IMG/VR virus record: IMGVR_UViG_2529292910_000001
Source: a virus
Lineage: Monodnaviria > Loebvirae > Hofneiviricota > Faserviricetes > Tubulavirales > Inoviridae
Direction: 5' to 3' (one strand)
DNA: 9,828 nucleotides
A model generated the notes under the pieces. It made no database searches. It was not told where the DNA came from and worked only from the letters and a program-made list of their open reading frames with translations. This document shows, one piece after another, positions 3,122 to 9,828 of this stretch (position 1 is the stretch's first letter; each line of letters begins with the position of its first letter). The position numbers and the translations under genes are program-made.

Positions 3122-3149
3122 ATTTAACATAATATACCTTATACGCACT
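3122..3149. other. dif: dif-like XerC/XerD site-specific recombination site; probable prophage attachment junction
   Basis: The minus strand reads AGTGCGTATAAGGTATATTATGTTAAAT, against the E. coli dif sequence as I recall it, GGTGCGCATAATGTATATTATGTTAAAT. The XerD arm is identical, the central hexamer has 1 mismatch and the XerC arm has 2. It lies between the chromosomal pseudogenes and the first phage gene. Confidence 0.7.
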
Positions 3150-3239
3150 GCGGTAAGATACGGTGAAAAACAGCCTGAAAGCCACACCGAATATCCTCAC
3201 CAGAACGCTGTCAGTCATCAATTTCATCAACATGCCACA

Positions 3240-3428
3240 TCAACGCCTGTACGACTCACGCCTTACGTCGTTCGTCTCGATGGCTGCCCGTTTAAAGGCG
3301 GTCTGGCAGGAAGCGCGTTGCGCTGTTCCGTGGTTCTCTGAAAGCTCTCTCTGGTATCGGCCGCTCAACTTCTGCATCACATGAAACCAAAGCGCGCGGC
3401 CTTCCATGTCCTGACGGACATAAATCAT
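3240..3428 (-). CDS. Hypothetical small basic protein (62 aa) start-stop coupled to gIV
   Basis: Its ATG overlaps the pIV stop as ATGA (3425..3428). The product is Arg-rich. There is no recognisable motif, and the ORF could be a chance frame in the phage intergenic region. Confidence 0.3.
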
Positions 3429-4705
3429 CTCAGCACACGGTGAGCCTGAAGCACGACGATAATATCCGTTTTATCGCTGTCCTCAGAGCTGCCTGTAAAT
3501 CCTGGCAGAAACGAAAATCCGCTTCGCCCCTTTGTGATTTTGCTACTGGCGAGACCACCCAGCACCAGAACGTCACCATCATTAACATCAACCCGCGTGC
3601 TGATTTCACGTTTTGTCAGTGTCGGACTGGTATTCACGCCCGTTGTCGTTTTCACAAAATCACTCAGTTGCTGGCTGATATCCAGTGTAATCACACCATC
3701 GAGCACAACCGGCGTCACCGTGAAAATTGCCCCGCTGTTCCTGTACGTAACCGACTGCACCGGAGAACCGCTGTTGCCCTGATACGTCACGCTGTCAAGA
3801 ACCGGCACTTCCTGACCCACCGTAAACTGCGACTGACTGCCGGAAAGCACCGTAAGACGCGGATTACTGACCACATTAAACCGCGAATCCGTCTTAATCA
3901 GACTGTAAAACGCATTAAGGCCACCCACATTCAGTGTAAAAGCATTGCCACCTTCAGAACGGGCTCCCAGCGAAACGCCAAGACGATTTTTAAAGAGGTC
4001 TGCAATAATCTGTAACCCGCTGGCGTTCCGCTCGGTAGTCTGCACCTCCAGAACGTAACCGCTAACCGTCACCTGTTCAGCCGGAATATCTATGCGGGGC
4101 AGTAAGTCACGAACGCGGCGAATATCCGCGACCGTTCCGCTGTATACCAGAACTTCTGCATCTGTGGCAGCCGAAACGCTGTTGGTTGCTGAACCGGAAG
4201 AAGCTGACGATGCAGAAGACGCTGCAGAACCAGAATAATCCACCGTCTGTACATGATTTGAGAAAGAACCTGATTGTGTGACAGATGTCAGCATTGAACT
4301 GAGATAACTGACACTGCGATATTTGGGGCGATACGTGAATACGCTGACAGGCTCCTTATATTCCTTCTTCGCCGGAATATAAATCCAGTCAACCCCGTTT
4401 CGGGATGAAACCGATATACCCATATTTTTAAGGTAGGAAATAAAAAATGAGCGTGGTTCCAGTGACTGCGTCAGATAAAAACTCACCACCCGCGTATCGC
4501 CTGCCAGTTCCGGCGATAACTGAAACGGGCGGTTAAACACACGCTGCCAGATTAACGATATCACCTGCGGCAGTGGCGCGTTATCCATTGACATATCGAC
4601 ACGGGAAGAAATCTGCTCCGGCGTTTTCTGTTTAACAGCAGAAAAGGAAGACAAAGGAAAAATAAATGTCAGTAACGAAGTCAGCATCAGTATACGAATT
4701 TTCAT
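3425..4705 (-). CDS. Filamentous-phage pIV secretin (outer-membrane export channel), 426 aa
   Basis: N-terminal signal peptide ([23 protein letters not shown]) and a C-terminal secretin domain (LVLGGL...SGFSFLPG...[10 protein letters not shown]). The start lies 2 nt after the gI stop (TAATAATG) with a G-rich SD. Same length as M13 pIV as I recall it. Confidence 0.9.
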
Positions 4706-4707
4706 TA

Positions 4708-5832
4708 TTAACCCCCTGCCCCTGTATTCACTGAAGACGGAAAGGATGAACGGGAAGAAACAGGCTTATTGCATGACCATGCGGTAATTTTCTCCCCGTC
4801 CAGTTCCCCTTCTGCCATGATGTTATACCCCGTAAAACCGCTGGCAGACGCCATGCGGAGGCGGTTTTCAGCATCACGAACGAAAATCCAGTTTTTCTGA
4901 CCATCAGAAAAACGCCCGACAATACACCATTTTTCAGAGGGTGCAGGATGTGAATTATCCGCACCTGTAACCTGTTTATTGTCTGTATTATTTAAAGACT
5001 GATTTACTGAATGATTAATATTATCCGCAGTCTGTGATTCAGACTTTGAGTCCACATCATTTACCAGCGTATTTTCATCAGGATTAAAAAACGACACTAC
5101 ATAATGAAAAACCGCCCAGACCGTCCCCGCCAGAAAAACAAGAACAAAAATAATCGTACGTTTTTTGAAAAGCACACCACGGGAATCAACGGAAGACTCC
5201 TGCGCATTCTGTACATGATGGGAACTGTAAAGTCTGAAAACATCCTTGCTGTATTTACAGACATAATTAGAAAGAAACGTGGATTTTGTTATCTTCGCGC
5301 CATCATAAACATCAACACAATAACTACGGGACAATCCGAGTTGTTTAAGTTTACGCATCCTGAATGTCTTTTCGATACGGTCACGAAAAAAACGCGGAAG
5401 ATTGGTTACTGACTGGTTAACCAGAATAAAGTCACAGGTACGCCCTGTATCAGGGTCAGCATAATGACGGTGTTCCGCTGCAAAGATTTTTGCATCCTTT
5501 GAAAGACTTTTATCATTCTCAAAAAAGCGATGACATTCATCAACCACAATTAAATCGCCCGGTTTGCACAATGCGCGCTCCTGATTCTCATGGACAGGCC
5601 AGAAGTCAGGGGCAATAATACGTTCATTTTCCACGAAAATAATTTCACCCGGACTGATTCCGTCTTTAAGCAGTTTTTTCTTTTCCGCATATTTAATGAT
5701 TTCATCATGATTAATCCCGTAAATATTGGTAACAACACGACGCCCTTCACAAATGGCAGGCACAATCACATTACTGACAACTTCATAGGACTTCCCCGAA
5801 CCAGGAACCCCCACATAAGCGAAAATAGACAT
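4708..5832 (-). CDS. Zot-like assembly ATPase pI (gene I protein), 374 aa
   Basis: Walker A motif GVPGSGKS at residues 8..15, Zot N-terminal domain character, and a central transmembrane segment ([16 protein letters not shown]). Positioned between pVI and pIV as in Ff phages. Confidence 0.9.
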
Positions 5833-5849
5833 GATTCATTCCCCTGCAA

Positions 5850-6137
5850 TCAGTTAAGAAAAGGAATACGACGAATAAAGAAACGCGTAAACATCGCCGA
5901 TACCACAACAGGAAGCACCACATCCAAAGAAAATACATGCAGCAACCAGAGCACACCGGAAGGCAGTCGGGAAAATAAATCCGATATATTCCCCGCAGAA
6001 GGAAGACGGGAAATAACAAGCGGGATAATCTCAGAAATAAAAAGATAGACCGCAGTAAAAAGCACAAACTTAATCACAACGGCACGAAAAACAAAGGCAA
6101 TCGCGGTATTAACCGCAGCAAGCAATATAGCCCACAT
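5850..6137 (-). CDS. Minor coat protein pVI-like (95 aa, hydrophobic)
   Basis: Very hydrophobic small protein in the position between gIII and gI. It has loose resemblance to the M13 pVI region around LSDIS..LPS. SD AAGAGG before the ATG. Confidence 0.6.
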
Positions 6138-8423: not shown

Positions 8424-8870
8424 TCAGAGAAATCCACACAGACAACAGAATAAACCTGTTGTTATCCAGACCCTGAATTCTGAGAAGTTGCGCTCATGAT
8501 TCCCACCCCGTTTAATGAACAGAATCCGAACATAAAGAAACAGGGTATAACCACGTCCTGGATAAATCAGATGAGACCAGACAAAAAGTATCAGCCGATT
8601 TAAAAAACGGAATAATAAAAAATCTTCCTCGTGTCCAAATTTTTCCAAAAAATGGAAAGCCTCAGAATAAGAAGGGAAAGATAAGGCGCATCCCGGATCT
8701 AAATGCCACAAAAAACCAACTGCTTTAAATTCCGGGAATTCCTCATAATCACAAAGAACAGGAGAAGGATAAAAGGACTCAGCCAGAACAAACCAACCGC
8801 CAAAAAGGAAAGTTTCGGTTATATTCAGCTTACGACGTAACACAGAAATATCAGGCGATTGCATAACCAA
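8424..8870 (-). CDS. Hypothetical protein (148 aa), aromatic-rich, in the gVII/gIX position
   Basis: Strong SD (AGGGGGAGG) 7 nt before the ATG, packed 13 nt after the upstream ORF, and no competing plus-strand ORF. Unusual composition (many F/W/C), which is partly expected from the T-rich coding strand, so the reality of the product is uncertain. Confidence 0.4.
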
Positions 8871-8882
8871 CCTCCCCCTCTT

Positions 8883-9170
8883 TTAACCAATATCCTCACA
8901 ACGGGAAATAAGACCATTGCAAAGCGAAATATAACGCGTCAAAACTGTCATTTCATAAGAGTCAAGACGAGCATAAGAGTCATTCAATAATTCAACACTA
9001 TGACGAAGACATGACCTGAAAAGATAAAGCCCCCTAAAATTATCTCCTGACTCAAAATCAATAACAGCCTGCTTATAAAGCTCAATAATAAGGTCTAGTT
9101 TCAGTCGAACAGAACCCGATTTACTGTGTTCTTCAAATGAAGAAATTGGTCGAATTGGACGAAAAGTCAT
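8883..9170 (-). CDS. Hypothetical protein (~95 aa) immediately downstream of gV
   Basis: ATG at 9168..9170 preceded by AAAGGTGG; an in-frame GTG at 9177..9179 is the track start. Composition looks helical/soluble. No motif recognised. Confidence 0.5.
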   Translation of the reverse strand: MTFRPIRPISSFEEHSKSGSVRLKLDLIIELYKQAVIDFESGDNFRGLYLFRSCLRHSVELLNDSYARLDSYEMTVLTRYISLCNGLISRCEDIG

Positions 9171-9185
9171 AAACACCACCTTTAA

Positions 9186-9533
9186 CTATTTAGAACCTGG
9201 AACCGTCAAAGGAAAAAGAACAAGTTTAAAAGCAAATTCGATACTGCCAAAGTTACCTACAGTATAAGACGATGGATGAATAAGATATTTACCCGCAGCA
9301 TAAGGTGGTTGTCCCTCATCAAGAGAAACCTTACATTCAATCACCTGACGACCAAGTCTGACAACGCCAACCTGAGAATACATAATCCCCTTAACAGGAG
9401 AGCCAAGAGAATCAACAACTACCAGCCCTGTTTTCTTATCTTTCTTGTCATATTCAAAAGAATCAACACGAACATCATCTTCCTCAAATTCAATAATAAC
9501 AAGATAACGCTCATCAACATTAATCATAGACAT
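9186..9533 (-). CDS. ssDNA-binding protein, gene V protein-like (115 aa)
   Basis: The C-terminal ~60 aa (KVSLDEGQPPYAAGKYLIHPSSYTVGNFGSIEF) align with the M13 gVp core as I recall it (KITLDEGQPAYAPGLYTVHLSSFKVGQFGSLMI). Strong SD AGGAG 8 nt before the ATG. Has an extra acidic N-terminal ~25 aa relative to Ff gVp. Confidence 0.8.
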   Translation of the reverse strand: MSMINVDERYLVIIEFEEDDVRVDSFEYDKKDKKTGLVVVDSLGSPVKGIMYSQVGVVRLGRQVIECKVSLDEGQPPYAAGKYLIHPSSYTVGNFGSIEFAFKLVLFPLTVPGSK

Positions 9534-9549
9534 TTAAATTTCTCCTGAT

Positions 9550-9828
9550 TTAACCTACTGCATAAAGTGGAGTTACACGCTGGCGATACCAGTCAGGCAT
9601 AACTGTTTCCTGCATTGATATTTCACGCATATTATGAATAACAACACCGGGGGTTTTACTGGCATCGTATTCCATAGCAATATCAATGCCGATTTTACGA
9701 AGGCGGGCACGGTGTCGTCTGATTTGACCACCATTAAAATCAAATCGCTTGCCACACATCCACGAATAAGCAATAAAAGCCGTAGCATTTGCTGCTTTAA
9801 CATTATCAACAATGCCATTAGTTATTAA
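9550..9828 (-). CDS. Probable replication initiation protein (pII-like), C-terminal portion only; gene continues past the window edge
   Basis: The frame ending at the TAA at 9550..9552 is open all the way to position 9828 (…ITNGIVDNVKAANATAFIAYSWMCGKRF…LYAVG), so the ATG at 9759 is internal. The assignment rests on position upstream of gV; no rolling-circle motif is visible in this fragment. Confidence 0.45.
   Translation of the reverse strand, partial: LITNGIVDNVKAANATAFIAYSWMCGKRFDFNGGQIRRHRARLRKIGIDIAMEYDASKTPGVVIHNMREISMQETVMPDWYRQRVTPLYAVG

Follow-up and report, generated by a model that had tools for sequence, protein, structure and literature searches.

Inoviruses integrated at the dif site, as represented by CTXφ, Ypfφ/CUS-1 and UPφ in and around the enterobacteria, are already well described. 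A single intact CTX-type prophage needs a tandem partner for the production of single-stranded DNA (ssDNA). When CTX-type phages integrate, a usable dif is restored at the 3′ (gIV) end, and a CTX-like integration of ssDNA has been proposed in the literature for Ypfφ. CUS-1 is ~99% identical to Ypfφ at the nucleotide level over 7.1 kb (PMC4266046). In this work we analysed IMG/VR record IMGVR_UViG_2529292910_000001, a stretch of 9,828 nucleotides (hereafter the window) which carries the genes of a filamentous phage in its positions 3122-9828. This element is very probably a CTX-type, Xer-exploiting inovirus prophage at the Escherichia coli dif site, crippled by the insertion sequence IS1 and persisting as a fixed and decaying remnant. 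The copy is defective.

Integration at the E. coli dif site

The window was 100% identical to contig AIFZ01000020.1 of the E. coli assembly GCA_000249675.2. Its host DNA (866-3148, ydeS'-ydeT-yneL) was 99.9% identical to thousands of E. coli genomes, and this match ended at 3148, inside a dif-like site. In K-12 the canonical dif is located at exactly the same place, followed by 76 bp and then by hipA. The prophage is integrated at the chromosomal dif, between yneL and hipA. An earlier note on this DNA, made from the sequence alone, had placed a dif-like site beside the phage module, and this proved right: the site at 3122-3149 had three mismatches to the E. coli dif used as reference (GGTGCGCATAATGTATATTATGTTAAAT), and none of 200 shuffles gave a match. 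The minus strand of the site reads AGTGCGTATAA-GGTATA-TTATGTTAAAT (the whole hybrid site in dif orientation is AGTGCGTATAAGGTATATTATGTTAAAT). The XerC arm (two changes) and the first central base were of the phage type, and the XerD arm was that of the host. The phage-type XerC arm matched the att arms of the related prophages described below. Judging from its sequence, the retained site is probably the working dif of this chromosome, and the dif of the strain now has a phage-derived XerC arm.

Intact relatives were reached through the homologues of two open reading frames (ORFs) of the window, ORF95 and ORF146. They were found as a single copy between hipA and ydeT in E. coli assemblies (GCA_964206195.1 and GCA_036972105.1, here L016/L017, and L019), and as a tandem array with a unit of 8094 bp in a metagenomic scaffold (L011/L012). 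Their layout starts with a divergent helix-turn-helix (HTH) repressor (108 aa), followed by gII (374 aa), gV, ORF95, ORF146 (where present), ORF63, gVIII (92-96 aa), gIII, gVI, gI and gIV, and the full phage is ~8.1 kb. The relatives were 87-98% identical in amino acids to the window proteins and had the same locus and the same att arms. By this comparison the window region corresponds to the 3′ two-thirds of a filamentous phage of about this length. Unlike the window copy, L016/L017 and L011/L012 are complete, with the HTH gene, a full gII and an attL hairpin. The relatives are flanked by two dif-like sites, while the window copy has one. Gene calling gave no integrase in the complete relatives L016 and L011, and no integrase or recombinase domain was detected among the window ORFs (Pfam, PHROGs and NCBIfam).

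The hipA-side junction of the relatives reads GGTGCGCATAA-TGTGAT-ACGCGTTATGT; a stem-loop comes next, and then the site again in inverted orientation. This region folded as an ssDNA hairpin of ~97 nt (z-scores of -10 to -11.6 against shuffles), in which XerC-arm and XerD-arm duplexes surround an unpaired central bulge. The predicted fold has the architecture of the attP(+) of CTXφ. This junction, on the side away from gIV, has a degenerate XerD arm. The ssDNA fold of the junction region in the window was no better than shuffles (z +0.7), and the attP hairpin is absent from this copy. Given the architecture seen in the relatives, we read the lineage as one of CTX-type inoviruses that exploit Xer (integrative mobile elements exploiting Xer, IMEX). 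The hairpin of the relatives, the absence of an integrase, the junction sequences and the published work on CTXφ and Ypfφ suggest that the ancestor entered dif through XerCD; for the window copy, such a hairpin is presumed in the ancestor only.

Two tandem CTX-type attP hairpins were observed in L011 (15686-15905), L012 (15675-15895) and E. coli cM8a (L032, 17444-17745). Hairpin A (z -6.6 to -7.6) was located 123 bp upstream of hairpin B (z about -11), and a compensatory change from C:G to T:A in the XerC-arm stem separated the hairpin copies. The site retained in the window has an XerC arm and a first central base of the A type. L012 showed the undeleted state, with the second hairpin (A), then 85 bp and then a near-canonical dif. 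This arrangement suggests that site A and dif may have recombined in a secondary Xer deletion, from which the retained site would derive.

The IS1 junction and the coding lesions

Beyond the window, the gII frame continued for 252 bp (to window-equivalent position 10080) and then abutted a complete 768-bp IS1, both terminal inverted repeats of which were read directly. The surviving pII corresponds to residues 199-374 (176 residues) of a 374-aa homologue, with 88% identity. In this homologue the match to Phage_CRI (the nicking domain) is at residues 4-89 and falls outside the surviving part. A complete rolling-circle initiator pII is absent from this copy and present in the relatives. On the far side of IS1 the sequence resumed at hipA codon 103, and only codons 1-103 remain, with the N-terminal Couple_hipA domain; hipB, yneO, an IS256-family transposase and lsrK follow. 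The contig lacks the last base of the dif present in K-12, as well as the 76-bp spacer and 1014 bp of hipA. The 9 bp flanking IS1 differ on the two sides, without target duplication, indicating something other than a simple insertion of IS1. This copy has lost the nicking domain together with the HTH regulator, the attL/attP hairpin and 1 kb of hipA. Both the IS1 junction and the hybrid site recurred in the sister assembly GCA_000249655.2.

The HipA kinase domain was removed by the same IS1-associated deletion, as seen at 8377-9453 in the source locus L003 (equivalent to window positions 10081-11157). The sequence indicates that the strain has lost a functional hipBA module, since only hipB and the hipA stub remain.

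Two further lesions were found within the window. In the homologue of ORF63, a small ORF resembling pVII/pIX, codon 12 is TAA (8462-8464), while it is CAA in all of the relatives (alignment with four); a GTG at 8437 restarts a hydrophobic ORF of 43 aa (8306-8437). In gVIII, the T-run at 8285-8289 was one base shorter than in the relatives, and the first ~20 codons (from the ATG at 8303) are out of frame. In the relatives the pVIII precursor has 92-96 aa, compared to 75/76 aa in the open ORF of the window. An independent read assembly reproduced the window sequence exactly. The T-run deletion was not present in the sister strain, a difference that independent assemblies reproduced; that strain showed other single-base homopolymer differences in ORF146 and, in one assembly, in gIV. 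The two sister assemblies (window against L004/L006) differed from each other only by single-base indels and by one 2-bp substitution inside IS1. Four of the indels were in the prophage (window 4447, 8290, 8623 and 8715) and the rest in or beyond IS1; those in the prophage switch pVIII, ORF146 and gIV between open and broken. They correspond either to independent decay or to homopolymer sequencing errors.

The earlier note had considered the element intact, with no frameshift in pVIII, and possibly inducible, and it had set a second dif-like site to the right of the window as a test. None of this was borne out. The gene gII is cut by IS1, the pVII/IX-like ORF has a TAA, the pVIII leader is frameshifted by the 1-nt deletion at its T-run, and the source contig contains neither the nicking domain nor a second att site. 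No second dif-like site was found in the 20-kb locus of the source contig, even when 6-8 mismatches were allowed. The replication gene expected on the right does continue there, but its N-terminal part is absent. We give almost no credence to an intact and inducible dif-integrated inovirus which makes virions and has the rest of gII and the second att site just beyond the window. Full-length gIV, gI, gVI, gIII and gV (compared with the relatives) and the intact relatives in other strains are consistent with such a phage, but the IS1 at gII codon 199, the single att site, the nonsense codon and the leader frameshift contradict it, and even an intact single prophage would need a tandem partner, as is established for CTXφ.

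A second alternative concerns the assembly itself. IS1 might be a simple insertion in gII, with another IS1 in hipA, and the segment between them (5′ gII, HTH, attL and 3′ hipA) might have been skipped and be present elsewhere, in which case the prophage would be otherwise complete. IS copies are classic collapse points, and one assembly bridges IS1 while all of the others stop there. However, the bridged contig (278 kb) is colinear with K-12 on both sides, and gII would be disrupted anyway. A look through the best 120 pII homologues for a separate N-terminal pII fragment showed no conspicuous candidate, but this test is weak and uninformative. We consider a collapse of this kind unlikely.

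Several points weigh against the preferred reading of an IS1-crippled, fixed remnant. Only one draft assembly joins IS1 to the hipA stub; at IS1 the sister assembly breaks, and so do two independent read assemblies. Two IS1 copies may have been collapsed by the assembler, even if gII is interrupted in that case too. An older sequencing platform could have introduced the homopolymer differences (pVIII leader, ORF146 and the pIV of the sister) as errors. A simple XerC exchange with a canonical dif does not predict the G found at central position 1 of the retained site. This phage-type G (GA in L016 and cM8a) puts the crossover at or beyond central position 3.

The remnant would have originated as follows. 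The ssDNA genome of the phage would have folded its attP into a hairpin mimicking dif, and XerC would have joined it to the dif located between hipA and yneL/ydeT in E. coli. The outcome at the gIV end would have been a hybrid site, with the XerC arm of the phage and the XerD arm of the host, serving as dif. Later, an IS1-associated deletion may have removed the opposite end of the element, comprising the attP hairpin at the hipA-side junction, the divergent HTH repressor gene and the promoter of gII, as well as gII codons 1-198, which encode the nicking domain, and 1 kb from the 3′ part of hipA. The deletion would have affected the dispensable junction and left the gIV-side site intact, as expected if this site is needed for chromosome-dimer resolution. 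The integration route through XerC and ssDNA, the dif function of the retained site and the non-inducibility of the prophage are what we infer from the sequence. With no nicking domain, repressor, gII promoter, attP hairpin or second site, the remnant would be unable to start rolling-circle replication, to be excised or to be copied out. It would be a clean example of how a prophage exploiting Xer becomes fixed, an IS1 deletion taking the dispensable junction while the working dif stays. Its consequences for general biology are small.

Gene array, accessory ORFs and satellites

The ORFs were listed in six frames and their gene identities were obtained from Pfam and PHROGs profile searches (Table 1). 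They form a continuous array on the minus strand, from 9828 to 3425, in the order of the Ff phages, and the coding strand of the prophage is T-rich, which is typical for inoviruses. The inovirus genes that the earlier note had recognised on one strand, in Ff order, were confirmed by Pfam/PHROG matches for pIV, pI, pVI, pIII, pVIII, gV and gII, as was its assignment of the 3425-5832 ORFs to the secretin and Zot families (PF00263 and PF05707). The gIV, gI, gVI, gIII and gV genes are open and full length compared with the relatives. The gIV product was 88-96% identical in amino acids to the pIV of the intact relatives (421-426 aa), and the gI product 93-97% identical to its counterparts. The product of gVIII, which lies upstream of the large adsorption gene, fits the small major coat protein of inoviruses (signal peptide, hydrophobic helix and basic C-terminus), apart from its frameshifted leader, and ends in ...VLKSIKKAS.

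Table 1. Positions, strands and supporting matches of the features annotated in the window.
Feature	Position	Strand	Description
Hybrid dif-like site (prophage attR)	3122-3149		28 bp, ATTTAACATAATATACCTTATACGCACT; 275 bp past the gIV stop
Phage intergenic region gIV-attR	3150-3424		minus strand; 88-90% nt identity to its counterpart in L016, L032 and others
gIV, secretin	3425-4705	-	426 aa, full length; PF00263 (1e-25), PF03958; phrog_1012 'protein IV of M13' (1.5e-115)
gI, Zot-family assembly ATPase	4708-5832	-	374 aa, full length; PF05707 (1.2e-24); phrog_197 (1.7e-80)
gVI-like minor coat protein	5850-6137	-	95 aa; DUF2523 (PF10734); phrog_974 (1.4e-19)
gIII-like adsorption protein	6158-7852	-	564 aa; position between gVIII and gVI; phrog_7187 (6e-32)
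Terminator-like hairpin	7986-8006	-	directly 3′ of gVIII, as in Ff phages; consensus scan only
gVIII, major coat gene	8014-8303	-	open part 8014-8244 (75/76 aa); phrog_2186 (3.5e-21)
pVII/pIX-like small hydrophobic ORF (ORF63 homologue)	8306-8497	-	assigned by position; phrog_22498
ORF146	8424-8864	-	carried by an insertion of ~358 bp (8505-8861); ribosome-binding site and ATG of its own
ORF95	8883-9170	-	no family match; lineage-specific, conserved
gV, ssDNA-binding protein	9186-9533	-	115 aa; PF02303 (2.2e-12); phrog_1199; adjoins the replication gene
gII/X, 3′ part	9550-9828	-	pX-equivalent C-terminal domain; PF05155 (1.6e-10)

The gIII-like protein has a signal peptide, a (Gly-Thr)37 linker and a C-terminal anchor, and its C-terminal domain was matched by phrog_7187 and phrog_3942. 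The linker is encoded by a tandem repeat (6550-6772, units of 18/36/54 bp in Tandem Repeats Finder). The Gly-Thr run has 37 units in the window compared to 10-15 in the relatives, where it follows Gly-Ser repeats; the linker varies in length.

ORF95 homologues formed 14 clusters; all of the source names given were Escherichia coli, and most clusters were nameless. The protein was predicted as a three-helix bundle (AlphaFold predicted local distance difference test, pLDDT, of 81). Compared with the PDB, the model matched only generic MIT-like bundles (E≥0.08, none with E≤0.001), and a suspected resemblance to FliS was unsupported (rank 35, TM 0.48). The insertion that carries ORF146 was missing from L011, L013 and L014, while ORF146 was also found in L016. 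Only two protein clusters with ORF146 were found in a database of 5.8 billion proteins, and there was no match in Pfam, PHROG or NCBIfam. Its single-sequence AlphaFold model was unusable (pLDDT 43). The ORF146 region is open in one of the six frames, and it differed from L016 by seven nonsynonymous and one synonymous changes. We read ORF146 as an orphan moron, possibly without function.

Other searches in the window were negative. As a packaging signal or origin, the intergenic region at 3150-3424 showed no significant ssDNA fold (z -1.5) and no inverted repeats. ORF62 (62 aa, 3240-3428, minus strand) is probably not a gene; it had no Pfam match and is broken in L011/L012. Rfam (gathering thresholds) and tRNA scans found nothing in the window, and the promoter scan gave fewer sites than in shuffles and was uninformative.

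On the left, the window starts with the end of a Mu-like transposable prophage (1-865) inserted in ydeS, which is cut to 116 aa. This end carries a repressor-like HTH gene (74-619, plus strand) and repeated 'GGTATCAAAT' motifs near its terminus. To the left of the window (L003, 18915-20348) we found a Ner-like HTH_35 gene and the MuA-type transposase of the Mu-like prophage. Elsewhere in E. coli, the same end is found next to a wide range of genes.

E. coli cM8a (NZ_CM176589.1, locus 14055-28118) harbours at dif at least four tandem copies of a 3663-bp element. Apart from a rep of the II/X family and an ssb, each copy encodes only two hypothetical proteins and one small ORF; morphogenesis genes are lacking. 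The element resembles an RS1-like satellite of filamentous phages and shares the att-proximal intergenic region (window 3120-3420) with 88-90% identity. In E. coli JNE25-005, the 9613-bp replicon pJNE25-005_3 (NZ_AP045060.1), listed as a plasmid, has the look of a dif-type inovirus in its circular replicative form. It carries an attP hairpin site (7940-7967) besides a rep fragment and an HTH gene, is interrupted by ISEc31, and matches prophages found in tandem at the dif of related strains. The tandem attP hairpins and the satellite array in these related loci are of more interest than the window itself.

One further alternative is that gIV, gI, gVI and gIII have been exapted, and serve the host or help replication-only satellite inoviruses at dif. 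The four large morphogenesis ORFs are intact, and the cM8a element (3.66 kb, with rep and ssb) shares the att-proximal region as described above. Nevertheless, gII has lost its upstream promoter region, both pVIII and the pVII/IX-like gene have suffered damage, and the 20-kb locus contains no satellite. The sister strains are near-identical, so that the open ORFs are uninformative on selection. We regard exaptation as highly improbable. A broader proposal, which we hold to be rather improbable, is that the prophage belongs to an undescribed CTX-type lineage of E. coli whose site in this copy is a secondary Xer scar between hairpin-A DNA and a regenerated dif. In this proposal the phages would be rewriting the XerC half and the spacer of dif, and morphogenesis remnants would form a helper/satellite system with cM8a-type satellites. 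If true, the XerC half and spacer of the sole dimer-resolution site would be progressively rewritten by these phages.

Distribution and comparison with known systems

Megablast of 3122-9828 against 50,697 phage records gave no match, which ruled out a named phage relative at the nucleotide level. In the GenBank phage collection (tblastn), the best match of pI was an uncultured gut inovirus (37%; CTXφ 26%), and none was filed under Escherichia, Enterobacteria or Lineavirus names. Among the complete E. coli genomes (n = 5426), two shared the morphogenesis module at ~87%, seven shared the gV-gII module and none covered 80% of the window. The work documents a lineage without a nucleotide-level relative in the phage collection searched and with distant protein matches only. 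The lineage is mosaic and rare, and of a thoroughly known kind.

E. coli O158:H23 (NZ_CP076709.1, 7135-16209) harbours the same morphogenesis module (87.7% nucleotide identity over window 3287-7874) between sanA and yeiS, where it is combined with another rep gene and adjoins an IS110-family transposase. No dif-like site was present in its 20-kb locus, and the integration module appears to have been swapped. Inovirus contigs with an enterobacterial-type pIV were also found in metagenome-assembled genomes named Aerococcus sp. (pIV 67%) and Ruminococcaceae (L024 and L027). The identity values of the Ruminococcaceae-filed contig were the same as those of the Y. pestis Ypfφ, and both are probably mis-binned phage contigs.

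Ypfφ (Yersinia pestis) and CUS-1 (E. coli O18:K1:H7) are, like the phage of the window, enterobacterial inoviruses at dif, often in tandem. The Ypfφ prophage of Y. pestis NCTC5923 was found by a scan of species-representative genomes. Its attP module, GGTGCGCATAA-TGTACG-ACTCGTTATGT, is closely similar to that of the E. coli phages and shares with them the hairpin flank downstream; a stretch of 95 bp was 84% identical in nucleotides to the attP region of a further dif-inovirus from E. coli. However, its proteins differ from those of the window (42, 40 and 37% amino acid identity in pIV, pVI and pI respectively; 23% over 20% of the length in pIII), and no similarity to rep, ssb, ORF95 or ORF146 was detectable in this prophage. 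The kinship with CUS-1/Ypfφ put forward in the earlier note holds only as a distant one, through pIV and pI, and does not extend to rep and ssb. As CUS-1 is nearly identical to Ypfφ, and no Ypfφ protein is more than 42% identical here, the element is not a copy of CUS-1 and membership in the CUS-1/Ypfφ group was ruled out.

The UPφ phages, IKe/I2-2-like dif prophages of Enterobacterales (PMC7307601), are also found in tandem at the E. coli dif and have a variable repeat linker in g3p. The linker is GGGES in these phages, unlike the Gly-Thr of the window.

CTXφ of Vibrio cholerae resembles this lineage in its organisation. It is an inovirus without integrase, with a divergent repressor, rep, ssb, coat genes and Zot, and its attP consists of two inverted dif-like half-sites in a forked ssDNA hairpin, like that of the relatives of the window prophage. 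The dif-like site is regenerated at the 3′ (morphogenesis) end in both cases, and relatives are found in tandem arrays. CTXφ is not known to encode a pIV secretin of its own. By contrast, the phage of the window encodes its own pIV, carries no toxin cargo, has E. coli as its host and shares 26% identity in pI with CTXφ, and the window copy has lost the hairpin end.

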